From Eledone cirrhosa (lineage: Eukaryota): a stretch of 64,000 nucleotides of DNA. Under the pieces are notes generated by a model, which was not told where the DNA came from, did not search any database, and saw only the letters and a program-made list of their open reading frames with translations. How positions within the stretch are numbered: the stretch's first letter is position 1; every line of letters begins with the position of its first letter. A program made the translations under genes and the position numbers. The stretch lies in the NCBI GenBank assembly GCA_964016885.1, contig OZ024740.1:114266001-114330000 (forward strand). The letters are read 5' to 3'. Of this stretch, positions 5,734 to 63,505 are shown piece after piece.

Positions 5734-8700
5734 AAAACACAACCAGTAACACCGTTGAGATTACTTATCACATGTGATTTATTTTACCTTTCAGTCAATA
5801 AATCAATGCGAACATTCAATGAATTATTCAGCATCTATTTCAATTTACCTTCGATTAACTGTGAGCAGAAAGTTTTCCCAAACCTACACGTTTTTTCACA
5901 ATTACTAGTAATTCGTACAAGACGCAATATTCTTCTTTCATCTTCTGCCGCCTCTAATTATTTCCATTTCCCACATTGGTTTTAGTTCATATAAATGTCA
6001 ATTTAGTTGACATCACTGGGTTTAAGATCGAGAATAGTGTAATGTTTTTAAGGCTATCTTCCCTGATGAAGTAGGAGTTATCCTAACCGACCCCACGACA
6101 AGTTTTATACGAAACACAGTGTCTTTTTGTGGCAATGTTTTACAGCCGGACGGCATTCATGACTCCAACAGTTTTGGTCACCTCTTAAGATAGGCACAGA
6201 TCCAGGACAAGACCTAGAATGTAGGAGTATAAAACAAATATTATATGAGAATTTTAACATCACAGATCTATTGTCTTTACCACCCCAATTCGTTTTGTTT
6301 CAAAATAAATGATGTTTGACAGTACTTTTGCTATGCCGTGTCCTAAATGTTTATGGAAAAAAAGTATGTGTAGTTGCATCCAGATAAGAATATGTATGGT
6401 ACACAGGCCCATGCAAAGTTGGCAATACACCTGGTCCAGATATAAACTGTAGAACCACATTTAAGAGTATAAAATTTATATATTAGCTTGATTTATGTAT
6501 GGAATGGTGTTATTTACATGCACATTCACTGTACATGATGTATATACAGCTAAGTGCAAAAAGGAAGGTCTACACCAACTGACCACTTTGCACTCCATTC
6601 TGAACAAGCTTATAATTATTCACTGTATTTGAATCACATTTGCACATATAAGGTCAATATTAAATACAGTAAAGCAAACTATTGACTATAGCAAACAAAA
6701 TTGATCCAAGGGAAATAACTTATATAACATTGAAATAAAGCGGGTAAGTATTTATGAGGAGAATGGCCTACACAGTTAACATTGTATGACATTAATGTTT
6801 TAGCAAATGATAATTTAGGTGATAGTTAGGTTTAATGTGCCATTTATAAATATGAAATCCGTTTGGCTCCATCACCTTCACGGTTTGATGTACAGGATAT
6901 ACCACAAATACTACATTTACAGAGAAATGTGACTAATCTTGTGAATAATGCATGTAATTTATTAATATACTACTCTACAATAATTAATCACTGTTAAAAT
7001 AACATTGTACACTTAGAAATATCTTACCACAAAAAAGTTACATTATTGATGTTACTATCAAGATCACAATTCCCAAAACTGATCTTCTCTAGGTCAAGAA
7101 TACTTTCACACTCTGTTCATCAATTCAATCAAGAAGGTTAGCTATGATCGTTTTTTTTTAAATTCAGGCTTCCGTTCTTTACTAGAAGGTCTTAAACTGT
7201 CTTGACCACAGCATCATATGTTCATAGTTCAAGGAAAACAGAGCTATTAACAATATGACAAATTAAGTCACAATAACATCCGAAATGTGCATTTAAGTCA
7301 AAGTGTTCTAACAGTAAACATGATCTAATATGCGTTATATCTATTTGTGCACTGGTATCACATCGTGTTGTTTTAAAGTAGGAATGATGGGAGCGAAAAG
7401 AGACGGGATTGTCATGGAATTTGACCCTAGTCTAAATTGAATTTTTTCTAATTTTTGTCTCCCTACCTTTCGAATGTTACATCTTTGGGCTTTCTTCAAG
7501 TACTTGTTGTTTCGTACTTATATCGAAATTTGTGTCCCAAAACTTTACTCTAACGAAAGTGGATGATTGTTCTTATTCTTTTATCATTATATAATTTACT
7601 TATTTGTGATGTTCGCTCAGACTAGAGTATTTACAGATAGGCTCATATCATTAGTTTACTTGTAAATAGTTTCAGCTATTAGTTCATATATAACAAAAGT
7701 GACCGATCAGTGTCTATTTTTGAACAAACAATTGTAATTTGTTTACCCCTATGCTTGCTAACAATTTAGGCATTTCTGATATGGCTTAACTTCAAAGGAT
7801 ATCTACACAGCAACATAAAATACATCACGATCGACCGATGGTCTGTACCTAGTCGCTCTGACTTATATCAAATAACAACAGAATTAACCAGATAGCATTG
7901 CACCATCGTTAAAATGTACTATATTGGTTAACGTATGGTCTTCGCTGGAATATCTTTGATCACCGAACTGTCCGAGTTAACAACAAAACTAATATCATTA
8001 GCGCGTCGTACACCCCCTAGAAGCAGTCTCAACCGAAGAAAAGCCATATCTTAGTCAGCTATCTCACTGAGCATGTTGTTATGTTCGTACGATAGCTATG
8101 TGTATCATTGGTTTTTATTCCACTCTACTACCCAGATGTGTCTAGCATATATTCCGGCTGAGATTTTGTTTGTTTCAACCCTTCTTAAACTTAGCTATAT
8201 ATCCGTATGCATTTAATATAATCAATAAAATTTGACTTGCTATGATTACAAGATATAATATATTTAATTTCTATTCTATTTAAGTATCGTTATCGCGTCA
8301 TTTCTAAAGATTCTCCTTGACATCTCGCTGACATCATGAAATATTTATGTTCAAAGAAATTTGACCACGATGAATAAAAGCGCAATTTAATAACTCACAT
8401 TTGAATTGCTGCTTTTATCTCACCATTACTTTGATTTTATAAATTTTAGAAATCAGCATGTCACCGTTTGATCAATGATTTTGAGCTGTAAGAATTTCTT
8501 TACAAGGATATCAATGTGACCATCAAATATATAATTTCAATAGTAATACAATATATGATAATTACCCCTTCACATTTGGAAATGTTTGGCTTATCAATGT
8601 CTAGAATATCAGCGCCGTCTATAAAAAGAAAAGCTAATTTTTGATCTTAACGATAATTCATGTAAAAACAGTCCTTTATATAGGGAAATATTGATTCTAA

Positions 8701-10578: not shown

Positions 10579-10755
10579 TAATAACATTCGATTCGTTTGC
10601 GATTATACAAACAAGCCACAAATTTATAGCAATGTCAGTAGAATAAAGGATTCATTCTACTGACATGGCTATAAAATTGAGGCTTGTTTGTATAATCGCA
10701 AACGAATCGAATGTTATTATTAATATTCGAAAAACTCAGATTATATTTATTGTAT
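10579..10755. repeat. Collapsed palindrome (~66-bp arms) of the element also present at 54259-54740
   Basis: TAATAACATTCGATTCGTTTGCGATTATACAAACAAGCC...GTAGAAT / ATTCTAC...GGCTTGTTTGTATAATCGCAAACGAATCGAATGTTATTA. Confidence 0.85.
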
Positions 10756-10760
10756 ATAAT

Positions 10761-10871
<111 letters not shown>

Positions 10872-11000: not shown

Positions 11001-13111
11001 CTTAAAATGCTATAAGAAAATGAAATACATGCTATGTGGCAAAGTCAGAGTTTCAAGAGTTTGAAAAAATGAGACGTTTTGATTGGTGAGAAGGATCAGT
11101 GTATTTGGGGGTGGGTGTGATGGTGAGATGTTGGTGACGGTCTGTGGATGAGGTGGGCTTGGTGTGGTGGTGGTGGGTTAGCTTTGGCGTGTAGAGTATG
11201 TGGGGGTGGATGTGATGATATGATGGTGGTTAAGGTTATTTAGTGGGATGGGCTGTGGCTGAGATTAGTAGATTGTCAGTAGACGGGTTGGCGTGTGGGT
11301 GGGGGTGTGGTAGTGGTGCCTTTGTCTATGGTAACGGCGTTTGTGGTGGTGTGGTGGATGTATTGGTGGCGTCAGGTCCTTACATAGATACATAGTTATA
11401 CGTTCTTTGTCTGACAGATACATTGTATATACGTATACGTACACACATATATGTATATATGTGCACATATATTGTTGTATAAACACACACAACATAAACA
11501 ACATACGCACAACTTGCCCACACATATCGGCATACGCTCACACACAGCCATATGTATATGTACACACATGTATGTGCATGCACGCATGCGGACACGAATA
11601 TGGAGAGTTGAGGAGTATCGGTGGGGGTGGCGAACGACAGAGATGGGGGGAAGGTGAGGGGCGATGTAGAGGGTGTTTTACATATATACATACACATACA
11701 TACACATGGGTATTGGCACATGGACTCACACTCATGTATGCAAGATATACACATACACACTCACACACACGTATACTCACACATATATATATATACACAC
11801 ACATGTACCGACAACACACACATACACGCACATATACACATACATGCACATATATGAGCTCACCTACACATACAGTCAGATTGACCCATATACACATATG
11901 CAGACGTACACATACACACACATACATACACATACATATATACACACACATACACATATGCATACACACACACATACATATATATACAGATATATATATA
12001 CATATATATATATACACACACATAGACATATGCATACTCATGTGTTCACATACACACACACACACACACACATAGAGATAAATTTGCGTACACGCACGCA
12101 CACTTAAAACGCCCGTATGAGTAAAATACTTACACACAGACACACACACTATTGTTGGTTGGGGAATGGAGGTATGTTTTGTCGGTGTTGATGAAGTATG
12201 GAGTTGTGTTTTGTGATGGTGGTGGTGGAGTTGTGAGGGACAACAATATATATACCGGATCGAATACCGGTTAAAAGGTGACATAGGGAATGCGGGGGAA
12301 AAGCGTTTATGGACATACGGCGATGTGTGTTGTGGACATGGTGATGGTGGTGGTACTGGGGTGATATGTTCGGCAAGATGATTACATGATCAGAGGTTAC
12401 GGTGTGTTATATGGTTAGCAGACGGGGGGTGGGGGTATATAATACAGTCGATTTGGGAGCGAGGGATGATATGTGTTGATGATGTAATGATAATGATTGT
12501 CGAAGTATGTGGATGTATTTAGTGGTGGCGGTGGTTGTGTGTGCGTGCGACAGTACAGTTACAGGGTCAAATTTAGCGTGGGGTTGCAGGTTAGGGTAGA
12601 TAGAGGGAACATGGGGGCGATGAGGTTGTAGGCGTGTATGGTATGCACATGACGATGTGTGGTGTGGTGGTGGTGGCGATGGTGTGATATGGTCAACATT
12701 GTATTTACAAGGTCACTTGTCATTGTGGATTGCAAGGTAGAACGTATCATATGGTACCGATTTAATACGATGTTGCAACTATGAGGTGTGTATGTTGATG
12801 TGAATTTTGGTGGTGGTGATGGTGATGTGTGCGGCATGATATACAAATGGGGGCTTAGAGATGGTAACATGGAGTACAATACAATAAGTTCAATGAGGTG
12901 GGCGATGTTGAGACGGGGTATAGGTGGTTATTAATATGGTGTGTCATGGTTAGTGTGATTTTTGGTGTGGGTTATGTATGTGGCATGATATACAAAATAC
13001 GGGCTTACATATGGTTAAATTCAATGAAATGAAATAAGATAAAGTGAAGTTAGATTAGAATTAAAGTTCGTTGAGATGAGCGATGGTGATACGGGGCAGG
13101 TGTAGTTATTA

Positions 13112-13966
13112 TTATGGTGGGTCATGGTTAGTGCGTGGTCTTCCTGTGAAAGTTTGTGCAGAAAAGGTATGCATCCTAGTGTGTCTGCAATTGACAATTA
13201 TGTCCGACCTATAGTTTATGGCGGAATCAAGTTTAATTATTTCCGCCGCCTCAGCTAGGCACAATCTGCAATGGTTTCTGTCACTGGGGATGTATGCCAC
13301 ACGTCTTTTTACTGACCACGAGATCAGGGTTTCAATATTCTTGTCCTTGAGGTCCCAGATCAGATCGGCCAGTTTTGTTTGGGGTCGTTTCGATCTATGT
13401 TTGAAGGAGATTCTGTGGTTATACCAGCGCTCCTTAAACGTAGTGGATGTCGCACCTATATATGAGTACTCCTTATTGCCGGCAGTGACATCGCACCGGT
13501 AAACAATATTCTTAACGAGGCTCTCCCCGTTTAGTGGGCATTCATCTCGTTTTTTGCAGTTGCATTTGGGAGTAACCGGTGCGGTGCAACGTTGGCGGTT
13601 GGTGTCGTGCGGTGTTGGTGTGCTGTGTGTGTTGTTGTGTTGTGTTGTGTGTGTGGTTTCGTTCTGGGTTGTAGTGGTGGTTTGTTGGGGAGAAACCATG
13701 TGTTTTCGTATTTTTGCCCTATTATTGTGTGCTATTGTGTGGCCTAGGTTTGGTGCTCTGGAGAAAGAGAATTTTACTGTGTGTTTATTGAAGAACTTGT
13801 GGTATTTGTGTGTGTGTGGAAAAGATTGTTCGAGGGCCCTGAAAAAGGTTCCCGGTATGTTAGTGGCGATGTGTATAGAATAAGGGGGGGGGGTTATACC
13901 ACGTGACAGGTCTACTTCGGTTTATGCGTTGTTTAGTGAGTTTGTGTGTGTTTTGGTCAGCCGTCC
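13112..13966 (-). pseudogene. PLE linker + GIY-YIG endonuclease fragment (Hydra type), 5'-truncated, frameshift in a poly-C run near 13890
   Basis: WYNPP/YSIHIATNIPGTFF..FNKHTVKFSFS, CNCKKRDEC (CxCx5C), IVYRC..YIGATSTTFKERWYNH, CRLC; collinear with the C-terminus of the 59614-62016 protein. Confidence 0.9.
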
Positions 13967-15595
13967 AATTCTAATCTAACTTCACTTTATCTTATTTCAT
14001 TTCATTGAATTTAACTATATGTAAGCCCGTATTTTGTATATCATGCCGCATACATAACCCACACCAAAAAATCACACTAACCATGACACACCATATTAAT
14101 AACCACCTATACCCCGTCTCAACATCGCCCACCTCATTGAACCTATTGTATTGTACTCCATGTTACCATCTCTAAGCCCCCATTTGTATATCATGCCGCA
14201 CACATCACCATCACCACCACCAAAATTCACATCAACATACACACCTCATAGTTGCAACATCGTATTAAATCGGTACCATATGATACGTTCTACCTTGCAA
14301 TCCACAATGACAAGTGACCTTGTAAATACAATGTTGACCATATCACACCATCGCCACCACCACCACACCACACATCGTCATGTGCATACCATACACGCCT
14401 ACAACCTCATCGCCCCCATGTTCCCTCTATCTACCCTAACCTGCAACCCCACGCTAAATTTGACCCTGTAACTGTACTGTCGCACACACACACAACCACC
14501 GCCACCACTAAATACATCCACATACTTCGACAATCATTATCATTACATCATCAACACATATCATCCCTCGCTCCCAAATCGACTGTATTATATACCCCCA
14601 CCCCCCGTCTGCTAACCATATAACACACCGTAACCTCTGATCATGTAATCATCTTGCCGAACATATCACCCCAGTACCACCACCATCACCATGTCCACAA
14701 CACACATCGCCGTACGTCCATAAACGCTTTTCCCCCGCGTTCCCTATGTCACCTTTTAACCGGTTTCGATCCGGTATATATATTTTTGTCCCTCACAACT
14801 CCACCACCACCATCACAAAACACAACTCCATACTTCATCAACACCGACAAAACATACCTCCATTCCCCAACCAACAATAGTGTGTGTGTCTGTGTGTAAG
14901 TATTTTACTCATACGGGCGTTTTAAGTGTGCGTGCGTGTACGCAAATTTATCTCTATATGTGTGCGTGTGTGTGTATGTGAACACATGAGTATGCATATG
15001 TCTATGTGTGTGTATATATATATATGTATATATATATATATCTGTATATATATGTATGTGTGTGTGTATGCATATGTGTATGTGTGTGTATATATGTATG
15101 TGTATGTATGTGTGTGTATGTGTACGTCTGCATATATGTATATGGGTCAATCTGACTGTATGTGTAGGTGAGCTCATATATGTGCATGTATGTGTATATG
15201 TGCGTGTATGTGTGTGTTGTCGGTACATGTGTGTGTATATATATATGTGTGAGTATACGTGTGTGTGAGTGTGTATGTGTATATCTTGCATACATGAGTG
15301 TGAGTCCATGTGCCCATACCCATGTGTATGTATGTGTATGTATATATGTAAAACACCCTCTACATCGCCCCTCACCTTCCCCCCATCTCTGTCGTTCGCC
15401 ACCCCCACCGATACTCCCCAACTCTCCATATTCGTGTCCGCTTGCGCGCATGCACATACATGTGTGTACATATACATATGGCTGTGTGTGAGCGTATGCC
15501 GATATGTGTGGGCAAGATGTGCGTATGTGGTTTATGTTGTGTGTGTTTAGACAACAATATATGTGCACATATATATATGTGCACATATATATATA

Positions 15596-16308: not shown

Positions 16309-16887
16309 ATATATATGTGTGTGTGTGTGTGTGTTTATGACAATGAGAGCCGAAGAAAAAAACAGGAGAGAGTGATAGGGAGGGACAGCAGAATGTGGGT
16401 GTTTAAGAAGGTGATAAACATTATTAGAAAGAAGTCTATTCTATAAGTACAACAAGTAATCATTGCTGAGTTATTAGCGAAGGCTTATAGTTACTTTCAT
16501 CATTTCTGTTTCAGTAGTGTGGCTACATAAACCAATATTCGTGGCAGTTATGAATGTAATCAAATATACGCCTGAAGAATTGAAAGAAGATGCTATTTCA
16601 TACCATACGACCTACTGATAAAATTTCCTGCTAATTCTACGGATTAGAGAAAAGCGGATTATAAGAAGGAAAAATCTTAATACTTTGCTATCTTGAAACA
16701 CCTGCTGGTTTCATTATATGACAGCCATTATTCGTTGTATTTACAGTTATGTTATGTTTATGGTGTGTTTGGCGTGTGTTTCGAGTTTTTATCTTATTTA
16801 TATATTGGTTGTCTTCGGCTGGTATTTGTTTATACACAAACATACGTATGTGTTTGAATGTGTATATTTGTGTGTGTGTATATATAT

Positions 16888-17118
<231 letters not shown>

Positions 17119-22565: not shown

Positions 22566-22663
<98 letters not shown>

Positions 22664-25131: not shown

Positions 25132-25169
<38 letters not shown>

Positions 25170-25344
25170 TTGTTATACTTTGGGAGGGTCATGTTGCCAA
25201 TAAGAAACACACGCGCCAGTTGCTTTCACTTCAATTTATTATATATTTTTATAAATTTATAAATTTACAAATTTACAAATCTACAAACTTATAAATTTCT
25301 GGTTGGTTGGTTGGTTCCACAACCAGATAGTTGTTTATATATAT

Positions 25345-25389
25345 AGTCATAGTCCTTTCGTCACACACTCTGTGACCTCTTCAGTGACT
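25345..25389 (-). ncRNA. Minimal type I hammerhead ribozyme (mirror of 28599-28643)
   Basis: AGTCA-CTGAAGA-G-GTCACA(GAGTG)TGTGAC-GAAA-GGAC-TA-TGACT. Confidence 0.85.
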
Positions 25390-25619
25390 GGGGATTCCTT
25401 TCTTCGTTTCTGTGCCTTTCCTTTCTTCTATCCTACGCCATTTTGTTTCTGTGTGTGTGTTGTGTGCTCAGTTTGCGCATGCGCCACATCCGGGTGTCTG
25501 TGTGTGTTTGTGTTCATTTTTCTATTTTTCTATTTATATTTTTCTATTTGTTTATTTATTTATTTATTTATTGTTGGTTGGTTGTTTGTTCTATGTGTGT
25601 GTGTGTTTTCATTTTGTCC

Positions 25620-26438
25620 TTAATTGTAAGTTGTGATGTTGCTGTTCCACTCATATTTTCTATTTAATTTTGGTTTTAATTCTTTTATGCTTACTGCCTC
25701 TGTAATTTGCCTAAACATTGCGTCTTTTCTGTGTGTGGATTCTATTTTTATTTCTATGCTCTCTAATCTACCCCTGTGTTCTATCTTAGCATGTTGGTAG
25801 AGCACAGATGTTTCTTTATTATCTTGGAGGTCTCGCCAGTGTTCATTTATTCGTTCCCCTATACTACGAGCTGTCTCACCTATGTACACTATATTTTTGT
25901 TTCTACATTGTCCTTCAGTACATCTTATGCTATACACTACATTTCTAGTTTTACAGTTAATATGGGGGCTTATTTTACAGGTTATACATTTCTTATCTAT
26001 ACATGAGGGTCTTTGGAACGGGTATGTCTTGCTAATAAGTGTTTTTACGGAGGTACCAGGTCTTTCTACTATCTTAATATTGAGATTATGTTTATTTAGG
26101 GCCCTTCTAAATTTGTAGGCTAGTTCGCCTCTAGGGGTTGTATTGATGAACATTACACTCTGGTATTTATTGCTATCATACCATGAGTTTATTCTATTGG
26201 CCTTGTTCCTAGTTCTTTCTATTCTATTCCAAAATTTGCTCCTATACAAGGGGCAGGTCCCATTTATGTCATTATTTACCATTTTTTCCCATTTGGTTCT
26301 GGCTCCTTTATACACTCTGATTCTATCTCTCTCATTATAGCCAGAGAACTGCATACGGTGGATGAAGTGTTGTATGTGTCTCTCTAGTTCTTCGGAGTTG
26401 CACATGCGGGACACATTTCTCATCACCCGTACCAAATC
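25620..26438 (-). pseudogene. Inverted duplicate of the PLE thumb/linker/GIY-YIG region
   Basis: 276-aa ORF near-identical to the C-terminus of 26987-28231; retains the intact end IKELKPKLNRKYEWNSNITTYN. Confidence 0.92.
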
Positions 26439-26441
26439 GCG

Positions 26442-28290
26442 GGACCACAAACACAGCCAGTCTGTGGGGCTAACATTGCTAGTAACTACAGACTGTCCTA
26501 CTTCCTCTCCCAGATCATACGCCCCATCATTGAGATGTCCCCAGATGTGTGTGACAGCACGGAGGACCTCCTCAGCAGAATCGGCGCGGGTAACCGATCT
26601 GGGGACCTAACAAACTGCATAATAGGCAGTATGGATGTTGTGTCCCTGTATCCATCTATTGACGTGGATTTTGCTGTGGAGAAATTCGTAGAAATGATCA
26701 GCGAGAGCAAGGTTGAGTTCCGTGGGATTGATACCAGTGAGCTGGGACTTCTACTTAAGCTTACCCATAGTAATAGTTACCTAGACACTTATGACCTTAG
26801 CAACCTGTGCCCTACAAGACCAGCAAGAGGCAGACCACCTACCATTACCTCAATGGCCAAGAAAACCCACACAGATAGATGGAACGGGTGGACCAGAGCC
26901 ATACGGACACCCGAAAACCACGATGAACTGAAGAAAATGATTGCACATGCGGTAGGGGCCAGATAAAATTAACCCTTAAGGAACATATGTTCAAATTTAA
27001 TGGTAAAACATATGCCCAAGAGGAAGGAGCAGCCATTGGTGTTAGCATTGCAGGCGACATAGCTAACTTATTCATGGTATGGTGGGACAGTAGACTTAAA
27101 CAAAAACAAAAACTTAATGAACAATTAGAAGACAGCTTAACCCTGATAATGTACTCCCGCTACGTAGATGATATAAACATCGTAGTTAAGACACCCCCAC
27201 TAAAGAACAGTCAGGAACTAGAGAAAAACACAATGGAAAGCATCCAGCAAATAGCAAACTCCATCCACCAGAGCATTAGAGTTACTATAGACTACCCAAG
27301 TAGACACCCCAACCATCGATTACCTGTACTAGACACAGAGATCTGGTTAGATACCATTAACAACCAAAAACAATTCCTCCATTCCCATTATGCCAAACCC
27401 ATGACTTCCAAACATCTGATCCACCGAAACTCGGCCATTTCGGACCATACCAAAATCAACATACTGATTGCGGATTTGGTACGGGTGATGAGAAATGTGT
27501 CCCGCATGTGCAACCCCGAAGAACTAGAGACACACATACAACACTTCATCCACCGTATGCAGTTCTCTGGCTATAATCAGAGAGATAGAATTAGAGTGTA
27601 TAAAGGAGCCAGAACCAAATGGGAAAAAATGGTAAATAATGACATAAATGGGACCTGCCCCTTGTATAGGAGCAAATTTTGGAATAGAATAGAAAGAACT
27701 AGGAACAAGGCCAATAGAATAAACTCATGGTATGATAGCAATAAATACCAGAGTGTAATGTTCATCAATACAACCCCTAGAGGCGAACTAGCCTACAAAT
27801 TTAGAAGGGCCCTAAATAAACATAATCTCAATATTAAGATAGTAGAAAGACCTGGTACCTCCGTAAAAACACTTATTAGCAAGACATACCCGTTCCAAAG
27901 ACCCTCATGTATAGATAAGAAATGTATAACCTGTAAAATAAGCCCCCATATTAACTGTAAAACTAGAAATGTAGTGTATAGCATAAGATGTACTGAAGGA
28001 CAATGTAGAAACAAAAATATAGTGTACATAGGTGAGACAGCTCGTAGTATAGGGGAACGAATAAATGAACACTGGCGAGACCTCCAAGATAATAAAGAAT
28101 CATCTGTGCTCTACCAACATGCTAAGATAGAACACATGGGTAGATTAGAGAGCATAGAAATAAAAATAGAATCCACACACAGAAAAGACGCAATGTTTAG
28201 GCAAATTACAGAGGCAGTAAGCATAAAATAATTAAAACCAAAATTAAATAGAAAATATGAGTGGAACAGCAACATCACAACTTACAATTA
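26442..28290 (+). pseudogene. PLE reverse transcriptase + GIY-YIG endonuclease, disrupted
   Basis: RT motifs GSMDVVSLYPSI, QEEGAAIG, RYVDD, PVLD; CxxxxCxxC linker; VVYSIRC..YIGET..ERINEH..QHAKIEH (CCHH). Frameshift near 26962 and GAA>TAA stop at 28229 relative to the inverted copy. Confidence 0.92.
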
Positions 28291-28598
28291 AGGACAAAAT
28301 GAAAACACACACACACATAGAACAAACAACTTACAATTGAAAACACACACAAAATGAAAACACACACAGGACAAAATGAAAACACACACACACATAGAAC
28401 AAACAACCAACCAACAATAAATAAATAAATAAATAAACAAATAGAAAAATATAAATAGAAAAATAGAAAAATTAACACAAACACACACATACACCCGAAT
28501 GTGGCGCATGCGCAAACTGAGCACACAACACACACACAGAAACAAAATGGCGTAGGATAGAAGAAAGGAAAGGCACAGAAACGAAGAAAGGAATCCCC

Positions 28599-28643
28599 AG
28601 TCACTGAAGAGGTCACAGAGTGTGTGACGAAAGGACTATGACT
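28599..28643 (+). ncRNA. Minimal type I hammerhead ribozyme in the PLE 3' UTR
   Basis: AGTCA-CTGAAGA-G-GTCACA(GAGTG)TGTGAC-GAAA-GGAC-TA-TGACT. Confidence 0.85.
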
Positions 28644-28877
28644 ATTTATATCAACAACTATCTGGTTGTGGAACCAACCAACCAACCAGAAATGTATAAG
28701 TTTGTAGATTTGTAAATTTGTAAATTTATAAATTTATAAAAATATATAATAAATTGAAGTGAAAGCAACTGGTGCGGGTGTTTCTTATTGGCAACATGAC
28801 CCTCCCAAAGTATAACAATATCGGTTTCAACACACGATTTCAGATAAAGAATCTTGCTAAACAAATTCAGAAACGAA

Positions 28878-28959
<82 letters not shown>

Positions 28960-29125
28960 AATTAGTATATCTACCAACAAATATATACAGATGCATACCT
29001 ATGCTAGCAAATATATAGGTTTTGTCTTAGTAACTTTGTAGTTCAATGCAAGGAGAGGCAGAACAATTATATGAAAGACGTAAAATAAGAAAATTATAAA
29101 ACTTAACTTACTTACTAAAATTTCA

Positions 29126-29208
29126 CTCCAACTAATTAGTTTCTGAAAGGGAATAAACATGGTTTCCGAATATAACAACATGGAGAACATCCTTTCGTCA
29201 TCAGGGAG
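29126..29208 (-). ncRNA. Type I hammerhead ribozyme, family A (mirror copy)
   Basis: Reverse complement of 29396-29478 with core intact. Confidence 0.85.
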
Positions 29209-29395
29209 GTCCATTCTCAGCTAAGTTCCCAGGCAATGCGTGGACACAGGGAAATTATACAAAAATAATTCAGTGGATGGAAAAAAAGCAATGTCCTGGA
29301 ATTTAGTCCTCGCTACCTTTTTTCCATCCACTGAATTATTTTTGTATAAGTTCCCTGTGTCAACGCATTGCCTGGGAACTTAGCTGAGAATAGAC

Positions 29396-29478
29396 CTCCC
29401 TGATGACGAAAGGATGTTCTCCATGTTGTTCTATTCGGAAACCATGTTTATTCCCTTTCAGAAACTAATTAGTTGGAG
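29396..29478 (+). ncRNA. Type I hammerhead ribozyme, family A
   Basis: CTCC-CTGATGA-CGAAAGG...CCTTTCA-GAAA-CTAATTAG-TT-GGAG; palindromic stem III, GUU site. Confidence 0.85.
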
Positions 29479-30026
29479 TAAAATTTTAGTAAGTAAGTTA
29501 ATTTTTATAATTTTCTTATTTTACGTCTTTCATATAATTGTTCTGCATCCCCTTGCATTAAACCACAAAGTTACTAAGACATAACCTATATATTTGCTAG
29601 CAAAGGTATGCATCTGTATATATATGTTGATAGATATACTAATTCTTTATAATTATCTCCAAATTATTTTGTTCAGCAAAAATTTGCCAAAACTACTACT
29701 ATGGTTCACAGTGATAGTCAGGCTACTGTCTTATTAGCACCCCACTCCTCACTGATTAACCACAATGTCACGTGATTGATTCTTTTGAATTTGCCATCGA
29801 CGAAGTAGGCAGTGATTTTTTCAATGTCCTGGAATTTAGTCCTCGCTTGCTTTTTTCCATCCACTGAATTATTTTTGTATAAGTTCCCTGTGTCCACGCA
29901 TTGCCGTAAGCAACCAATCACATTCTTTCTCTCTGGCTTGAACAAAGCCACATAGCGATTTTTAGCCATTTTTGAATCTAATTTTGGCGGGATCGGATTG
30001 AAAAACTAGATGTCTGATTTTGAGTT

Positions 30027-30104
30027 TGTCTCCTGATGAATCCTAACTCAGGACATTCCTATTATTTGGATGTCCAAAATAAGGAAGAAACCATGGTAGA
30101 GATA
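30027..30104 (+). ncRNA. Type I hammerhead ribozyme, family B copy 1
   Basis: TGTCTC-CTGATGA-ATCCT..GGACATTC(9 nt)GGATGTCC..AGGAA-GAAA-CCATGG-TA-GAGATA. Confidence 0.85.
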
Positions 30105-30682
30105 TAATTACGGTATGTGCGCATTTCTTCTAAGTTTAATTTTACAACTACTTGTTGATGGTATATTTAGTCAGTTTCTACATGCTGTCGAAATGTTGGA
30201 TAAATACTCGACTGGGGCCGCCGCGAAGAGGCTACGCTCGGTTATTTGTCGGAGATTTCCCCATAAGAGCATTTATTCGTATAGCTTGTTCTGATTGATT
30301 TTTTATATGGTTAATTATGCTAATTGGAAGAAGAAATAGTATATATTTTATTATCTGATGATTCTAAAGACATGATTTATGATATAATGCTCTGATTTTT
30401 TAATTTATTAATTCTTCATAGAGCTTAAAAGTGACCAGTTGCAACGTATATATATCTTTAACTTTATGTATATGTTAACCTTTATATTTAATAATCTCCC
30501 AATAGGTTGAGATTAACTTTGCGATATTTGGCTGCGCTTTCTAGCAGCAAGCCTACCCGCCGTAAGCAACCAATCAGATTCTTTCTCTCTGGCTTGAACA
30601 AAGCCACACAGCGATTTTTAGCCATTTTTGAATCTAATTTTGGCGGGATCGGATTGAAAAACTAGATGTCTGATTTTGAGTT

Positions 30683-30760
30683 TGTCTACTGATGAATCCT
30701 AACTCAGGACATTCCTATTATTTGGATGTCCAAAATAAGGAAGAAACCATGGTAGAGATA
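30683..30760 (+). ncRNA. Type I hammerhead ribozyme, family B copy 2
   Basis: As copy 1, but the stem I 5' strand is TGTCTA (A.G mismatch next to the cleavage site). Confidence 0.78.
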
Positions 30761-31346
30761 TAATTACGGTATGTGCGCATTTCTTCTAAGTTTAATTTTA
30801 CAACTAATTGTGTATGGTTGATGGTATATTTAGTCAGTTTCTACATGCTGTCGAAATGTTGGATAAATACTCGACTGGGGCCGCCGCGAAGAGGCTACGC
30901 TCGGTTATTTGTCGGAGATTTCCCCATAAGAGCATTTATTCGTATAGCTTGTTCTGATTGATTTTTTATTATATGGTTAATTATGCTAATTGGAAGAAGA
31001 AATAGTATATATTTTAATATCTGATGATTCTAAAGACATGATTTATGATATAATGCTCTGATTTTTTAATTTATTAATTCTTCATAGAGCTTAAAAGTGA
31101 CCAGTTGCAACGTATATATATCTTTAACTTTATGTATATGTTAACCTTTATATTTAATAATCTCCCAATAGGTTGAGATTAAATTTGCGATATTTGGCTG
31201 CGCTTTCTAGCAGCAAGCCTACCCGCCGTAAGCAACCAATCAGATTTTCTCTCTGGCTTGAACAAAGCCACACAGCGATTTTTAGCCATTTTTGAATCTA
31301 ATTTTGGCGGGATCGGATTGAAAAACTAGATGTCTGATTTTGAGTT

Positions 31347-31424
31347 TGTCTACTGATGAATCCTAAGTCAGGACATTTCTATTATTTGGATGTCCAAAAT
31401 AAGGAAGAAACCATGGTAGAGATA
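31347..31424 (+). ncRNA. Type I hammerhead ribozyme, family B copy 3
   Basis: As copy 2. Confidence 0.78.
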
Positions 31425-31726
31425 TAATTACGGTATGTGCGCATTTCTTCTAAGTTTAATTTTACAACTAATTGTGTATGGTTGATGGTATATTTAGTCA
31501 GTTTCTACATGCTGTTGAAATGTTGGATAAATACTCGACTGGAGCCGCCGCGAAGAGGCTACGCTCGGTTATTTGTCGGAGATTTCCACATAAGAGCATT
31601 TATTCTTATAGCTTGTCCTGATTGATTTTTTATATGGTTAATTATGCTAATTGGAAGAAGAAATAGTATATATTTTATTATCTGATGATTCTAAAGACAT
31701 GATTTATGATATATATATATATATAT

Positions 31727-32539
31727 AGTATAAAAAAACGAAATATCAGTGATGAATCAGGACTCAGTTTATTGCGTGTTACAATTGTTTCGCCGGCAGG
31801 TAGCTCGAGACATGATCACTATATGGATCTGGCTGATTCTACGGCTGCAGGTTCCTTCGGACACATGCAATTATTTCGGAGTAAATTTTCTCACTGGGGT
31901 GTTATCATAAAAAAACACCTTCAAAAACATCTTCCACTCTTGTCATGCCATTGGCTGTTGTTTTTCTACGTCATCATAAATTCTGGTCACTATTTACTGC
32001 TACACTGACCATCAGCCATTTTCTGTCCGACACACTTCAATGGAACCATGCTGGGTTTGGTATCTCACACGTCTGTTTACACTCCCGAGTATGTACCCAC
32101 ATATACACACACAAATACACACACACACGTACACACACATGCATGCATACACATATGTACGCACACATGTGTAGACACACATACCCTATGTAGCAGTGAC
32201 CAGAATTTATGACGAGGTAGAAAAACAAAAGCTAATGGCATGACAAGAGTGGAAGATTTTTTTTGAAGGTGTGTTTTGATAACACCCCAGTGAGAAAATT
32301 TGCTCCGAAAGAATAGCATGTGTCCCAAGTAACCTGCAGCCGTAGAATCAGCCTGATCCATACAGTGATCATGTCTCGAGCTACCTGCCGGCGAAACAAT
32401 TGTAACACGCAATAAACTGAGACCAGATGCATCACTGATATTTCATTTTTTATACTATTCACACTCTGCTCTGTAAGAATATTGAGTGCTAATTTTGGCA
32501 TACCGCCTATGGAAGCACCATAGCTACCATTATAAACAC

Positions 32540-45256: not shown

Positions 45257-45781
45257 CTAGGCGGGTAAAATTCCTGAGATCCATGAACGAGTTCTCTCCA
45301 GCGGTCTATGTCCCTCATTATCGCTGCCATGTCCTGCGTCTCCAACATGGTTAACATACGTTAACCATGAACTTCCTCTTCCAGTGTGTCCATGTAGAGG
45401 CTCCCACAGGAGCACTGAGTGCAATGTCAACTCTAGATGTCGGTGAGCATGTCCAGCTAACGTCAGTCTCCTCTGTGTCACTTTTGAGCTGACTTTTGGG
45501 AGGCTCCCATACAGCTCTGAGTTGTTCATCCTCAGTGTATACTGATTAATGTTCAGAGCCATCCTCAGCATTCCCGTGTATAACCCATCCACCATCTGAG
45601 TGAGTTTCTTGGTCAGTGTCCAAGTCTCAGACCCGTACAGCAACACAGACTCCACTACAGCAATGAAGAGGCGGATTTTCAGGTCTTTACGAAGCTCCGA
45701 CTTCCACACCGATCTCAAGCTGTGGCACGCTGCCCAGGCTTTGCTCTTCCTCTCAACCACGTCATCTTCTGTATTCCCAAT
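45257..45781 (-). pseudogene. RTE-type LINE ORF, C-terminal part
   Basis: KAWAAC..KIRLFIAVVESVLLYGSETWTL..LRMAL..RRLTLAGHAHR..LLWEP. Confidence 0.9.
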
Positions 45782-46174
45782 CTGATGGATGACACAGTTC
45801 TTTGAGATACTGCCTGGAGTGCTCCAGGGAGATACATTGGCTCCCTACCTTCTTATCATCGTAGTGGACTATTGTATGCGCCTTGCACTGGAGAAGCACC
45901 AGGATTCTGGCTTTACTGTAACACCGGCTCAGAGCAGAAGAGTTAAGGTGAAAAAGGTATCAGATGCTGAATTTGCCGACGACATAGTTTTGGTGACAAA
46001 TACAGTGAAGCAGGCAGAGGATTTGATTTCAGGGGGTTGAGACTGTGTCGATGAGTGTGGGGCTGAGAATGAATGGGACTAAAACAAGATATCTGGTAGA
46101 GAATGTTGAGAAGCCAGAGGGGATTATTAATATAGGCGGGAAGCCGCTGGAATTGGTTGAGGACTTCCTGTATT
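45782..46174 (+). pseudogene. RTE-type LINE RT core, inverted relative to its 3' part
   Basis: GVLQGDTLAPYLLIIVVDY, FADDI, frameshift near 46035, GLRMNGTKT, VEDFLY. Confidence 0.9.
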
Positions 46175-57120: not shown

Positions 57121-57556
57121 CGCAATTCACATCTGCATCTCACTTGCATATTTGAAAATGTGAATGTATTGAAATGCATGAATGTGAACAAACGAATGGA
57201 TTAATCTGCTTCTATAGGTGTAGGAGTAATAGAAAGCTTACATTTAATCTGTATGTGGTTCTAGTTAGGTACGTACATTCCCAATTAAAACGCATCGATA
57301 TAAAGGAATATTTATTTTAAATACATGGAAACGAAATCTGTGAGAATGAATGACAGAAGAAATGGACCAAGAGGTTATCCAATTGGATATTCAGAGACAA
57401 ACCGTGGATATCAAGGGACTCCGTGTCGTGAAGATCTTGACTGACATATTATGACCAGGATAGTGGAGAGAAACACACACACTCGCACTAACACATACAC
57501 ATACATTACACATTTATATATATATATATATATATATTTACACATATATATATATA

Positions 57557-58126
57557 TAGAGAATTTTAATATATCTACTAACATAAGCGCACAGATGTAC
57601 GCTAATGGCAGCAAATACACATTTTATGTCATAGTACCTACGTGGTTCAATGCAGGAGAATGCAGAACAATAATATAAAAGACGTAAAATAAGAAAATTT
57701 AAAAAAAAAAAAATTTTTTTTAAATTAACTTACTTACTTAAATTTTCACTCCAACTACTTAGTTTCTGCAATGGGATAAAGACAGTTACGTAATGAACTG
57801 TTGAGAATTTCATTGCGTCATCAGGGAGGTCATTCTCAGCCGAGTCTCCAGGCGATGCGCGGACACTGGGGGCTCATATAAAAATAATAATAATTCGGTA
57901 AATGGAACAGCTATCGAGGACTGGATTCCAGCTACTGAAAATTCACACTGCCACTGATCATATGGCCGATTCTAAAGAATCAATCACGTGACACAGAGGC
58001 TAGTCAGTAGGAATGGGATGGTAAGATGACAGGCGCCTACTAACACCCCCAAAAAAAATTTTTAGAAGTGGTTTTGGCAGGTTTGCTCGACAAATCAGTG
58101 ATTTGGAGATAAATATAGATAATTTA
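57557..58126 (-). mobile_element. Full monomer of non-coding HHR family A (diverged subfamily)
   Basis: Minus strand is collinear with 29651-29821 followed by 29289-29650 (shared TATCTCCAAAT, TGTCACGTGATTGATTCTTT, AGTCCTCG, GCTGAGAAT.GACCTCCCTGATGACG, CTTATTTTACGTCTTT). Confidence 0.88.
57749..57828 (-). ncRNA. Type I hammerhead ribozyme, family A'
   Basis: CTCC-CTGATGA-CGCAATG...CATTGCA-GAAA-CTAAGTAG-TT-GGAG; stem II covaries with the 29.4-kb copy. Confidence 0.88.
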
Positions 58127-59341
58127 ATACTTGAACAGCTCTCTATCTAAAATCTGTAATCTCTGCCTAAATGAAAAATTTACCATTATCTCTAATCTAG
58201 ATTCTATAATAAATAGACGTACAGATTTGTTTTCTATCTGCCTGTATAAATTCCATAGGACTTTTCACAAAGTATACAGTTAATATTCAATTCTTTATCA
58301 ATTTAGAATCTTTTCTCAAAGGCACATATACATACACCTCTTTAAAATATACCCATCTTCCTACCTTACTTTAAAGGGCATTATACACTCTATAATACTT
58401 GTTTACTCATTACCCTCTTTCTATCTTCACCTTGTAAAATCCTTCATAACATATACATTTGTTTTTTTGACGTTAGAATATTCATCCGCAATTATTATTA
58501 TTTTTTCTCTCTATCATAAAACTTTTTAATCTCAATTTCATCCTTAATTTATTATTTTTTTCTCCCCATCAACGAACTCATTCTTAATACATATTAACTC
58601 GTTCTTCGCACATATTATCAATTCCTTCAATATACAAACTTTAACTTCACATTATTTTTCTCAAATCCTTCTACACGCAAACCTTAATAATTTTTTCTCT
58701 TCGTTAATTTTGAAATTGCCATAATACTTATCAACATACACCATTTTGACGTTAGAATATTCATCCACAATTATTATTTTTTTCTCTCTATCTTCATACA
58801 TAAACTCCCTCTCTTTCCTCGCAAATATTTTTCCCTTCGCTAATTTTCAAATTCTTTTAATTTATACATTATCTTCCAACGGTTCTCAACCTCTCTATGT
58901 AAAACAATATATCTTTTCTCAGTTATAAAAACTATCTCTTTCTCTCTATTACCCATCTCTCCCTCTCCACCTTCACTCTCATCTCCTCCCCCTTTTTTCA
59001 TCCTTTCCACCACCCCTCCCTAAATAAAATATTTTTTCCTCGTACATATCTTTCCCTTCGTTAATTTTCAAATTCTTTTAATTCATACATTATCTTCCAA
59101 CGGTTTTCAACCTCTCTATGTAAAACAATATATCTTCTCTCAGTTATAAAAACTATCTCTTTCCCTCTATCACCCATCTCTCCCTCTCATCTCCTCCCCT
59201 TTTTCATCCTTTCCACCCACCATCCCTCTCTAAATAAAATATTTTTCCCAATATCACACATCAATCTAAAACCACTTTTCATATGTTGATTTAAAACTGC
59301 ACTATCCACAAGTGTTTTTTAGCCTTCATATCATGTTCTCC

Positions 59342-59412
59342 TGTTTTATTTGATGAAAACACAAATATTATTGCATGATGATGTTTGTTTTTGAAATGCG
59401 CATAATAAAACA
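59342..59412 (+). ncRNA. Type I hammerhead ribozyme in the 5' pseudo-LTR (C3U substitution)
   Basis: TGTTTTAT-TTGATGA-16-bp stem II-GAAA-TGCGCA-TA-ATAAAACA. Confidence 0.8.
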
Positions 59413-59613
59413 CATGGAACTCCTTTAACCATCTTTTGATCTTATATTATGTATACTCCAGTCCTACAAATTGTAGAGTGCTTCTTAGCCGATATCTGCA
59501 TTGCTTTATTGTACTACAATAAAACTCACCTCCTACATTAACTTGCTCCTTAACGGTTGAGCGCTTACTCTCATATTGGATACCTTTTGGTGGTCTTTCA
59601 CTTCTTCTACAAC

Positions 59614-62016
59614 ATGGATTATTACAACATAACCAATTCAACTAAAGACATTCCTATACCTGGTAAATCTGAATTCACCAAACTTCTTATTGAAAAAACT
59701 GACTCCTTCGTAAGAAGACTTAGATGGACAGCCTATTTCTATGACCAGCGCCTAAAAGAGAACTTCCATACCAAAGAACATAACTTCCTCGATCATCTAT
59801 TTAATTCTAGACGAAATCCTCCTTCCAACAAAAATCTAGTACAATTCGAGGAAGAATTAACTAAAATAATAAAAAATCTTAAATTCAAGAGATACCCTTA
59901 CAAAGGGCAAGAGCACCTTGTAAATCTCAAGAACACAATTTCTAACCTAAATTCCTCAAAAAATGTTTTAGTCCACTCTGACAAAACCAATAACTTATAT
60001 GGTATTTCCAAGGATAATTATAACAATCTTATCCTAAAGGAACTTAGGAAAAAGTATCGTAAATCCAACCATGAAAATTTAGAATACATAAACCTTGAAG
60101 CCTCTGAGATTATGTCAAAACTTGGCATTGAAAAAAAGACCGAACCATTCCTCCCAAGAACTCCGAGGATAAATCTCAAGGATCACAAAAACAATTTTCG
60201 CACTGAACTACCTGTTAGATTAATCGCCCCCTCTAAATCTGATCTGGGGGTTGTTAGTAAAGCCATCTTGGATAGAATGATCCCACAGGTTAGTTCTAAT
60301 TGCTCTTCTTTGAACCTAAATTTATGGTTTGGTACTTCTGAAGTGATTGGCTGGTTCAACAAATTGGATAATAAAAACAAACTAAAATTTATTCAATTTG
60401 ATATTGCCAGCTACTATTCCTCCATTTCGCCTTCACTTCTCAATAATGCTCTATCTTTCGCACTTAAATATTCTGACATCACCACAGATGAACTTCACAT
60501 CATCCTCACCGCACGTAAAACCATCCTAGAGTTCAACAACGAATATTGGACCAGAGCCGATACCTCTAACAACTTCGACATCACAATGGGAGCATCCGAT
60601 TCATCCCAATTGACTGATTTAATTGGTATCTTTATTTTGAACTCTTTGAGTCGGAAAATTCCTCAACTTCGCGGTGAAATTTATCGTGACGATGGACTCT
60701 TTACTATCTTAAATTGCAATATAGTTAACCTTAATATTATTAAGAACAATATACGTAATCTCTTTAACCAACATAACCTAAAAATTGAATTTGATAATAG
60801 TATCAAACTAGCTAATTTCTTGGATGTATCTCTTAATCTTGACACTGGCCTATATTACCCTTACCATAAAAACAATGAGAACCTTAATTATGTTAACTTT
60901 AAATCTAACCATCCTACCAATATCAAGAATGCTATAGTTAGTAATATTGGAAAAAGAATATCTAACATATCTTCTAATAAAAACATCTTTGATGCTAACG
61001 CCAATTACTATAATAACGCACTTTCTAAAGCCGGCTATCCAGATAAAATCAAATATAGTAAAGAAACAAATTCTAGAAAAACTTACAGTAGTATAATTAA
61101 TCATGATCATTCCAATAATTTTAATAAAAGACCTAGATACAAAAACATAATCTGGTATAATGCTCCTTTCTCCATCTCTATTAATAACAATATTCCTAAA
61201 TTATTTTTTAGTGCCTTAAATAAATGCTTCCCTCCCTCACATATCTATAGTAAAATATTTAACAAACACACCATCAAATTTTCTTATTCTACATCCTCCA
61301 ATATTTCCAACATCATCTCTAAACACAACAATAAAATACTAAATACTAAATCTCTTCCTTCCAACATTGAATTTCATAATAACAGTAATAGTACTCCCGA
61401 CGTCATTGTAAACCCTAGGCTAACTTCTGTAAACCCAAATACAACGTCAAACACAACTTCGCTAAATATTCATAATCCAACTCTAAATCAAGAAACTATT
61501 ATTCCTATTATTCCTATCGCAAACAACTTCTCCAATCCAATTCCTTCTATAGATAACACTAGGTCACTCATTAATAATCTCTCTAATTGCAACTGCCGCA
61601 TTAAAAATAAATGTCCTCTCAACAACCATTGTCTTGATAAAAACTTAATTTATGAATGTAAAGTAATAACTAGCACCAATTCCTTCACCTATTTTGGCTC
61701 CACTTCCACCTCTTTTAAAGCTCGTCTCTATAATCACCATTCATCTTTCAAATACAAACTTAAAAGAACCAACACGGCTCTCTCAGAACTCATATGGTCC
61801 TTGAAAGACAAAAACATTAAATATACCATCTTTTGGAAGAAGGTTTCTTCTGCATCCTCATACTTGAACAGCTCTCTATCTAAAATCTGTAATCTCTGCC
61901 TAAATGAAAAATTTACCATTATCTCTAATCTAGATTCTATAATAAATAGACGTACAGATTTGTTTTCTATCTGCCTGCATAAATTCCATAGGACTTTTCA
62001 CAAAGTATACAGTTAA
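59614..62016 (+). CDS. PLE polyprotein: reverse transcriptase + C-terminal GIY-YIG endonuclease (800 aa from the first ATG)
   Basis: Uninterrupted ORF; STKDIPIP, SDKTNNLY (DKG variant), FDIASYYSSI, TMGASDS, YRDDGL, NFLDV, SNHP, CNCRIKNKC, LIYECKV..YFGST..FKARLYNH, CNLC. Confidence 0.95.
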   Translation: MDYYNITNSTKDIPIPGKSEFTKLLIEKTDSFVRRLRWTAYFYDQRLKENFHTKEHNFLDHLFNSRRNPPSNKNLVQFEEELTKIIKNLKFKRYPYKGQEHLVNLKNTISNLNSSKNVLVHSDKTNNLYGISKDNYNNLILKELRKKYRKSNHENLEYINLEASEIMSKLGIEKKTEPFLPRTPRINLKDHKNNFRTELPVRLIAPSKSDLGVVSKAILDRMIPQVSSNCSSLNLNLWFGTSEVIGWFNKLDNKNKLKFIQFDIASYYSSISPSLLNNALSFALKYSDITTDELHIILTARKTILEFNNEYWTRADTSNNFDITMGASDSSQLTDLIGIFILNSLSRKIPQLRGEIYRDDGLFTILNCNIVNLNIIKNNIRNLFNQHNLKIEFDNSIKLANFLDVSLNLDTGLYYPYHKNNENLNYVNFKSNHPTNIKNAIVSNIGKRISNISSNKNIFDANANYYNNALSKAGYPDKIKYSKETNSRKTYSSIINHDHSNNFNKRPRYKNIIWYNAPFSISINNNIPKLFFSALNKCFPPSHIYSKIFNKHTIKFSYSTSSNISNIISKHNNKILNTKSLPSNIEFHNNSNSTPDVIVNPRLTSVNPNTTSNTTSLNIHNPTLNQETIIPIIPIANNFSNPIPSIDNTRSLINNLSNCNCRIKNKCPLNNHCLDKNLIYECKVITSTNSFTYFGSTSTSFKARLYNHHSSFKYKLKRTNTALSELIWSLKDKNIKYTIFWKKVSSASSYLNSSLSKICNLCLNEKFTIISNLDSIINRRTDLFSICLHKFHRTFHKVYS

Positions 62017-63073
62017 TATTCAATTCTTTATCAATTTAGAATCATTTCTCAAAGGCACATATACATACACCTCTTTAAAATATACCCATCTTCCTACCTT
62101 ACTTTAAAGGGCATTATACACTCTATAATACTTGTTTACTCATTACCCTCTTTCTATCTTCACCTTGTAAAATCCTTCATAACATATACATTTGTTTTTT
62201 TGACGTTAGAATATTCATCCGCAATTATTATTATTTTTTCTCTCTATCATAAAACTTTTTAATCTCAATTTCATCCTTAATTTATTATTTTTTTCTCCCC
62301 ATCAACGAACTCATTCTTAATACATATTAACTCGTTCTTCGCACATATTATCAATTCCTTCAATATACAAACTTTAACTTCACATTATTTTTCTCAAATC
62401 CTTCTACACACAAACCTTAATAATTTTTTCTCTTCGTTAATTTTGAAATTGCCATAATACTTATCAACATACACCTTTTTGACGTTAGAATATTCATCCA
62501 CAATTATTATTTTTTTCTCTCTATCTTCATACATAAACTCCCTCTCTTTCCTCGCAAATATTTTTCCCTTCGCTAATTTTCAAATTCTTTTAATTTATAC
62601 ATTATCTTCCAACGGTTCTCAACCTCTCTATATAAAACAATATATCTTTTCTCAGTTATAAAAACTATCTCTTTCTCTCTATTACCCATCTCTCCCTCTC
62701 CACCTTCACTCTCATCTCCTCCCCCCTTTTTCATCCTTTCCACCACCCCTCCCTAAATAAAATATTTTTTCCTCGTACATATCTTTCCCTTCGTTAATTT
62801 TCAAATTCTTTTAATTCATACATTATCTTCCAACGGTTTTCAACCTCTCTATGTAAAACAATATATCTTCTCTCAGTTATAAAAACTATCTCTTTCTCTC
62901 TATCACCCATCTCTCCCTCTCATCTCCTCCCCTTTTTCATCCTTTCCACCCACCACCCCTCTCTAAATAAAATATTTTTCCCAATATCACACATCAATCT
63001 AAAACCACTTTTCATATGTTGATTTAAAACTGCACTATCCACAAGTGTTTTTAGCCTTCATATCATGTTTTCC

Positions 63074-63144
63074 TGTTTTATCTGATGAAAACACAAATAT
63101 TATTGCATGATGATGTTTGTTTTTGAAATGCGCATAATAAAATA
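63074..63144 (+). ncRNA. Type I hammerhead ribozyme in the 3' pseudo-LTR (canonical core)
   Basis: TGTTTTAT-CTGATGA-AAACACAAATATTATT(GCAT)GATGATGTTTGTTTTT-GAAA-TGCGCA-TA-ATAAAATA. Confidence 0.9.
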
Positions 63145-63265
63145 CATGGAACTCCTTTAACCATCTTTTGATCTTATATTATGTATACTCCAGTCCTACA
63201 AACTGTAGAGTGCTTCTTATCCGATATCTGCATTGCTTTATTGTACTACAATAAAACTCACCTCC

Positions 63266-63505
<240 letters not shown>

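Follow-up and report, generated by a model that had tools for sequence, protein, structure and literature searches.

A Non-Coding Hammerhead Repeat Family in Eledone cirrhosa Whose Insertions Carry the Signature of Penelope-Like Elements

Results

The DNA that we have analyzed, referred to throughout as the window, is a 64,000-nucleotide stretch of the Eledone cirrhosa genome (contig OZ024740.1, positions 114,266,001 to 114,330,000). Its positions 28953-29905 hold a copy of a hammerhead repeat, family A, placed between a Penelope-like element (PLE1) and an unrelated hammerhead tandem, family T (Table 1). Self-comparison establishes that 28953-29651 is a palindrome, 93% identical to its own reverse complement, because 28953-29291 is an inverted copy of 29314-29651 that includes its own hammerhead, leaving one hammerhead on each strand; the segment is a tail-out inverted duplication of family A. 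The (TA)n tract to its left is likely the insertion target and was possibly lengthened during insertion. A unit of ~535 bp had been reported in an initial annotation of this DNA, in good agreement with the period of 533 found here (29289-29372 recurs at 29822-29905 with 96% identity). That annotation also placed a monomer junction at 29650/29651 and read the copy as circularly permuted; we find instead that 29651 is a fixed insertion end common across the family and that what looks like permutation here arises from a one-off 3' break at 29905, where family T is joined with a 3-nt GCC overlap. The junction (29903-29905) has a single genome match, which rules out a recurrent A-T chimera, and we propose that the end of the right arm was lost at this locus or switched into family T. 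The conserved block TGTCACGTGATTGATT, which we take to be E-box-like, may function in a promoter or in RNA structure.

Table 1. Coordinates of features described in the text (positions in the window)
Feature	Position	Strand	Remarks
PLE1 (GIY-YIG), left neighbor, tail-out insertion	25167..28880	.	fixed ends 28821 and 28880
(TA)n tract	28881..28956	.	38 units; between distal 3' end of left PLE and left arm
Left inverted arm, 339 nt	28953..29291	-	3' end outward, at fixed site 2 (29651 equivalent)
Left-arm type I hammerhead motif	29100..29242	-	predicted cut between 29130 and 29129; 148 bits
Right arm, 617 nt	29289..29905	+	one 533-nt monomer + 84 nt; natural 3' end lost
Right-arm type I hammerhead motif	29362..29504	+	core at 29396-29478
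Fixed end site 1	29527..29563	+	end after 29536 (...CTTTCATATA), then predicted small bulged hairpin ~29540-29563
Predicted long hairpin between both sites	29589..29638	+	two pairs with compensatory changes; coordinates approximate
Fixed end site 2	29643..29676	+	end after 29651 (...TTCTTTATA), then second predicted bulged hairpin ~29657-29676
Conserved block TGTCACGTGATTGATT	29766..29781	+	0.97 at +301-325
Family T, ~660-nt hammerhead tandem, unrelated to family A	29903..31713	+	abuts right arm
Subfamily-B arm	57555..58129	-	3' end at site 2, into (TA)n 57515-57558
Subfamily-B hammerhead	57722-57861	-	predicted cut between 57753 and 57752
PLE2, partial-tandem PLE fused to B arm	58127..63270	+	fixed ends 63187 and 63270

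The core noted previously, CTCC-CTGATGA...GAAAC-TAATTA-GTT/GGAG, is indeed present in the right arm, with CUGAUGA at 29400-29406 followed by an extra C (29407) and GAAAC at 29461-29465 preceded by an extra A (29460). Stem II (29408-29413/29454-29459) continues into an internal loop and an inner hairpin, helix I is extended, and stem III is the palindrome ACUAAUUAGU (29464-29473), with cleavage predicted after 29474 in the GUU triplet at 29472-29474. The hammerhead was recognized by its pattern and by a covariance model made from family A copies themselves, from which the score of 148 bits for the left arm derives, and not through Rfam, where no family reached the gathering threshold and where the 150 matches listed, of 198 weak ones, included no hammerhead, being microsatellites matched to miRNA models.

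A second copy, of subfamily B and 70-75% identical to the copy at 29 kb, aligns on the minus strand as 58124->57555. The monomer reported before at 57557-58126 is thus present, but it is slightly longer than one unit, runs on the minus strand and passes without spacer into PLE2 at ~58127. The T/G change reported for the stem III loop does occur in the window copy but is sporadic, the other subfamily-B copies listed having T. Two sequencing runs of another organism, presumed to be RNA, gave no contig matching either window copy, and two runs of uncertain type match the B copy as short contigs that carry no information on expression. Since the B-PLE2 fusion has two distal ends it does not represent a clean single event. 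PLE2 itself includes an 820-codon open frame (59554-62016) and a hammerhead-like motif at 63082, and its window copy is apparently intact and young; a first look gave 46,047 candidates for its protein in the genome. The frame has no Pfam match at E 0.001 and no match in the PDB, and in its nearest Atlas clusters some of the proteins contain HTH_animal, GIY-YIG and RVT_1.

In order to count copies the genome (3.0 Gb, 1,796 contigs) was searched with an 18-nt motif spanning the cut site, giving 9,643 exact matches as against 0 for the reversed control, and with a second motif just downstream of the cut site, giving 8,661. Because 74 of 96 copies anchored on the downstream motif carry the cut-site motif exactly, a rough estimate is ~12,000 hammerheads distributed over about 6,000 sites. 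Fifty-eight distinct cut-to-cut monomers from natural arrays, a set enriched for both window subfamilies, are 522-571 nt long, so that units lie head-to-tail with at least two hammerheads at some loci. Where two subfamilies of an old family had been described, these monomers form six clusters, so that there are at least six, and with 75-89% identity between clusters but 93-96% within them the family is not simply old. The longest ATG frame in the 58 monomers is 79 aa sense and 90 aa antisense, no monomer has a blastx match to proteins of three PLE families, and a 95-aa frame is without a Pfam match, in accord with the earlier view that no credible ORF is present. Clustered, repeated subfamily-B blocks at 45.835-45.854 Mb of contig C28 look like a segmental expansion after insertion, and in one subfamily variant (L196, L199, L200, L205) an extra G follows the GUU triplet, altering helix I.

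Conservation of the motif was evaluated in 66 copies that were located by the downstream motif and whose core could be parsed, the others being left out. CTGATGA is intact in 60 and GAAACTAATTAGTT in 59 of these, a C follows A9 in 64, G10.1-C11.1 is paired in 63, and an A precedes G12 in all 66. The switch of stem II from GAAAGG/CCTTTC to GCAATG/CATTGC is confirmed together with both extra bases; the bases described as a C.A mismatch are there, but can equally be read as an intact G10.1-C11.1 pair flanked by one additional base on either side. Mismatches at the stem II base also occur in two other families of the same genome, T (A.A) and D (CC/CA).

For covariation we used 33 copies hand-picked for diversity, comprising 31 of 95 distinct segments and the two window copies. 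Stem II pair 10.2 occurs in all four Watson-Crick forms (UA 16, AU 9, CG 7, GC 1), pair 10.5 as GC (19) or UA (12), and the inner hairpin adds four covarying pairs, giving six in total that change on both sides; helices I and III contain no two-sided change among the 33 copies. Both the number of paired cells and the covariation score exceed all 500 shuffles, and the count of six covarying pairs is not above this control (295/500). The stem covariation first noted between the two window copies is thus real and family-wide, though few independent events lie behind it as the sequences are related, and selection on the RNA of stem II is likely.

In the computed best fold of two of three copies the CUGAU box pairs with stem III, the active fold lying 2.5 kcal/mol higher in two copies and 6.9 in the third, and two palindromic stems III can form a 10-bp duplex of -9.0 kcal/mol. 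Such an inactive lone fold and intermolecular duplex would fit action as a dimer. For three monomers folded as circles, z is -5.4 to -6.0 against 25 shuffles per monomer. Catalysis may be weakened by the GUU triplet and by the additional bases flanking stem II. Few regions of the monomer are as well conserved as its catalytic boxes. By analogy with related repeats, the hammerhead is probably active in vivo.

The main feature of the family, overlooked in the initial annotation, emerges from the architecture of its insertions. The first 100 motif matches on contig C1, which were not selected for similarity, form 62 clusters; 59 of these were used, and 58 remained after one segmental duplicate was dropped. 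Two positions account for the standard 3' ends, one 62-83 nt and the other 175-205 nt beyond the cut site, each leading into (TA)n, and the 5' ends are spread over the whole monomer. Arms run head-to-tail for up to ~2.7 monomers (1,486 nt). There are 41 tail-out inversions, six of which have one non-standard end, and the remaining 35 all have one end of each type (35/35; p 3e-11 against a probability of at most 0.5 for independent ends). Among 20 single arms 13 end at site 2, six at site 1 (one of these a doubtful low-complexity match) and one elsewhere. A consensus fold of 17 diverse monomers places both sites in unpaired UAUA, 4-6 nt before a small bulged hairpin. Family A insertions carry the PLE insertion signature of partial tandem, 5' truncation, inverted 5' copy and a tail at one end, and the 115-nt stretch between site 1 and site 2 is the published PLE 'tail', produced from two internal reverse transcription start sites; sites 1 and 2 would be those start sites.

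At least three CT units precede the TA run in 17 of 90 terminal site-2 ends and in none of 113 internal copies, suggesting slippage as reverse transcription starts or, alternatively, later expansion beside the TA tract. Apparent target duplications in 22 of 120 elements are all TA-rich; beyond these matches there is no clear duplication, nor is there an LTR pair. A search for empty sites with a pre-existing (TA)n gave a single, uninformative match among 125 elements. Elsewhere (TA)n tracts act as hubs at which elements of several families are stacked end to end (L085, L103, L038, L125). Compound (TA)n(AG)n microsatellites at 10742-10866, 16879-17116 and 22567-22660 resemble the (CT)n(TA)n ends at site 2 and may be the ends of other PLE-driven insertions.

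The PLEs of the window were analyzed in the same way. PLE1 is a young family with frames of up to 1,237 aa (~1,240; a copy lies at L191:1961-5674), and copies of PLE1 and of PLE2 are 98-99% identical with open frames. Both have two fixed ends in (TA)n, with mixed pairs in 8 of 9 PLE1 and 6 of 6 PLE2 insertions, the one exception having identical flanks on both sides. Like those of the PLE characterized in vitro, the two fixed ends of PLE1 are situated within the beginning of its ORF. The tail measures ~60 nt in PLE1 and ~83 nt in PLE2. A third tail-out PLE insertion at 11451-15578 is related to PLE2 and includes a 269-aa frame with a GIY-YIG-like end.

Additional hammerhead repeats are found in this genome. 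Family T, whose type I hammerhead-like motif combines A.A at the stem II base with a palindromic stem III, weakly matches the family A model (E 0.009) and has 3,629 first-look candidates; its two fixed ends are ~104 nt apart and the one pair available is mixed (1/1), so that we read it as a second retrozyme-like family. A relaxed core pattern (631 matches, control 59) yielded deletion variants and family D (window 44469; L131-L160), whose hammerhead-like motif has a double mismatch (CC/CA) where stem II begins; its arms are inverted, its ends are flanked by TA, and exact matches number several hundred. Inverted elements also occur at 1499-2836, with a hammerhead-like motif at 2718, and at 31733-32451, and core-like motifs at 6063, 15842 (minus) and 53213. 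A 195-aa frame at 45257-45844 (minus) with a weak DUF6451 match resembles the C-terminal part of an RTE-type non-LTR element.

Discussion

Since its insertions end at two fixed points as those of PLEs do, family A is likely a new non-autonomous PLE passenger resembling non-LTR retrozymes, and we consider it very probable that PLEs have driven its spread. PLEs are known to insert into (TA)n and to leave inverted 5' copies and a tail at one end (PMC8557442). A purified PLE, predicted to be a dimer, cleaves and extends both strands, and its reverse transcriptase starts at two internal sites that delimit the tail (PMC11167929). The animal retrozyme class and the hypothesis of its mobilization by PLEs are already in print (PMC7229834; PMC13282606; bioRxiv 10.64898/2026.07.22.740005), the mover having been argued so far from co-occurrence and pLTR homology. 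What is added here is a non-coding hammerhead repeat with a PLE-specific insertion footprint that can be counted across thousands of copies, and the texts that we consulted contain no account of a paired two-site footprint for a retrozyme.

Of the possible explanations, the one we favor, with somewhat better than even confidence, is that the reverse transcriptase-endonuclease of a PLE acts in trans on a hammerhead-repeat RNA that is probably circular. The sequence continues without a break across the cut site in 93 of 96 copies, and the longest arm measures 1,486 nt. A linear monomer left by cleavage could yield no more than ~200 nt when copied from site 1 or site 2, and it is therefore ruled out as the template. 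A peak of 5' ends at the cut site was also looked for and rejected, the 3 breaks in 96, all within ~4 nt of it, being close to the number that uniform truncation would give over such a distance; at +1 to +19 long arms end in slight excess (8 of 102 5' ends). The template would then be a circle or an uncut multimer. We modestly favor the circle, given how related repeats behave, that the core is conserved and that copies longer than a unit have to be regenerated; if the rest holds, it seems somewhat more probable than its competitor. The initial annotation had proposed a selected, retrozyme-like family copied from circular or multimeric RNA; covariation, arms of ~2.7 monomers and read-through of the cut site all agree with this, but permutation between the window copies is no evidence for it and the 3' ends are fixed at two sites.

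In the scheme that we envisage, family A arrays would be transcribed and two hammerheads would pair via their palindromic stems III and excise a monomer; once ligated, the circle would be stable because a lone hammerhead favors the inactive fold. A PLE protein, probably a dimer, would cut both strands of a (TA)n tract and hold one RNA at both UAUA-plus-hairpin sites. The two DNA ends would then prime cDNA synthesis at separate sites, with occasional stutter because the template is short. The cDNAs would run round the template for variable lengths before being joined 5' to 5', producing tail-out inversions, or single arms should one cDNA be lost. Arms that belong to a single insertion do not clearly resemble each other more than they resemble other loci (12/20), and as arm-to-arm identity does not discriminate single from multiple templates, that one RNA molecule is used is deduced from the end rule alone.

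PLEs might instead mobilize family A from uncut linear multimers, with no circular template and with a hammerhead that only clips read-through transcripts, depends on the PLE protein or serves chiefly as a structural element; this is possible but, we think, rather unlikely. Intact cut sites fit this scenario equally, long natural arrays exist as sources, and for the PLE tested in vitro hammerhead cleavage was unneeded, unprocessed RNA was the main template and no reads ended at the hammerhead site (PMC11167929). However, copying from an internal site should shorten an array in each round unless a circle or a template jump intervenes, yet arms of ~2.7 monomers occur. The conservation of the catalytic boxes and the abundant circles made by related animal repeats (PMC7229834) also speak against this scenario.

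It is improbable that family A is the pLTR or UTR of an unsampled autonomous PLE, its copies being 5'-truncated ends. The architecture does resemble that of PLE ends, and in true PLEs both sites lie just 3' of the hammerhead, near the ORF start. Past site 2, however, comes the next monomer and not an ORF; an ORF with RT and GIY-YIG between pLTRs, as in autonomous EN+ PLEs, is absent. Neither blastn, profile nor blastx comparison links family A to PLE1, PLE2 or PLE3, the three PLE families compared, the likeness of its site motif to that of PLE2 is not significant (best p about 0.06), and the hammerhead model matches no PLE pLTR in 22 sources. Among 140 elements only the two fusions in the window join another family without a TA tract, and none identifies family A as the 3' UTR of an ORF-bearing PLE, although a rare parent is conceivable. 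Finally, amplification at the DNA level of a satellite or minisatellite with a relic hammerhead, by unequal exchange or fold-back duplication, is very improbable, for while some long arrays exist (C28) and could have expanded as DNA after insertion, insertions of 0.2-3 monomers are dispersed with fixed 3' and variable 5' ends, fold-back duplication would yield two identical ends in contradiction to the 35/35 mixed pairs, and the compensatory changes indicate selection on RNA.

Returning to the PLE-driven copying of a probably circular RNA, we put forward a more specific and quite tentative proposal. The retrozyme circle may mimic the PLE start signal twice, such that an RT dimer primes both DNA ends on one RNA, one per site, with telomerase-like stutter on UAUA/CUCU writing much of the genomic (TA)n and (CT)n(TA)n, the hammerhead acting only as a dimer and having extra bases flanking stem II. 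The terminal (CT)n runs may mean that PLE RT writes microsatellites. If true, the double start signal would amount to direct, insertion-level evidence for the mobilization of animal retrozymes by PLEs, and it would supply a rule for PLE tails in general. The 35/35 pairing leads to a sharp prediction for the in vitro PLE system, namely one RNA, two sites, one per DNA end.

Comparison with Known Systems

Plant-type LTR retrozymes have a type III hammerhead, paired LTRs and a 4-bp target duplication, and family A, with its type I motif and tandem plus inverted arms, is not one of them. It is like metazoan non-LTR retrozymes in consisting of non-coding units that are arranged head-to-tail and each contain a single type I hammerhead (PMC7229834; bioRxiv 10.64898/2026.07.22.740005), in its short palindromic helix III and low GC, and in its co-occurrence with PLEs, by which these too have been proposed to be mobilized. 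The axolotl Amex2 motif, in which U.U is mismatched at the stem II base, works as a dimer (PMC7229834), and only 1 of 9 Xenopus retrozyme dimers was cleaved (bioRxiv 10.64898/2026.07.22.740005). Monomers of family A are of 522-571 nt, compared with 170-400 nt (PMC7229834) or 51-972 (bioRxiv 10.64898/2026.07.22.740005), and occur mostly as short, dispersed insertions, with tail-out inversions and two fixed ends, an arrangement for which we found no account in what these two sources describe of retrozymes. Homology to pLTRs, the main evidence of the preprint (bioRxiv 10.64898/2026.07.22.740005) for PLE passengers, was not found for family A, and metazoan retrozymes make circles (PMC7229834) whereas family A is known here from DNA sequence.

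EN+ PLEs and PAc Poseidon share with family A partial tandems, 5' truncation, an inverted 5' copy, a tail at one end, an AT-rich or (TA)n target and a hammerhead upstream of two internal start sites (PMC8557442; PMC11167929). Family A differs in having no ORF and a tail of 115 nt in place of 30-40 (PMC8557442; PMC11167929), and the strict pairing of one end of each type is counted here in its insertions; the in vitro PLE study saw no difference in start site between strands (PMC11167929). The minimal hammerheads of PLEs resemble the motif of family A in their short helix I core and long helix II, in an additional base inserted between A9 and G10.1, in a conserved G10.1-C11.1 (63/66 in family A), in a palindromic helix III and in their predicted dimeric action (PMC4209133). 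Compared with these, family A has an invariant extra A between C11.1 and G12 (66/66), a three-pair helix III, GUU, and a helix II extended by an internal loop and covarying hairpin; our literature search on hammerhead variants gave no obvious account of this A, which supplementary alignments may hold. Non-autonomous Chlamys PLEs (MRC1) are likewise non-coding passengers, with pLTRs and multicopy head-to-tail insertions, but those of this type, in green algae, generally share 3' sequence with their driver (PMC8557442), and for family A no driver homology was found.
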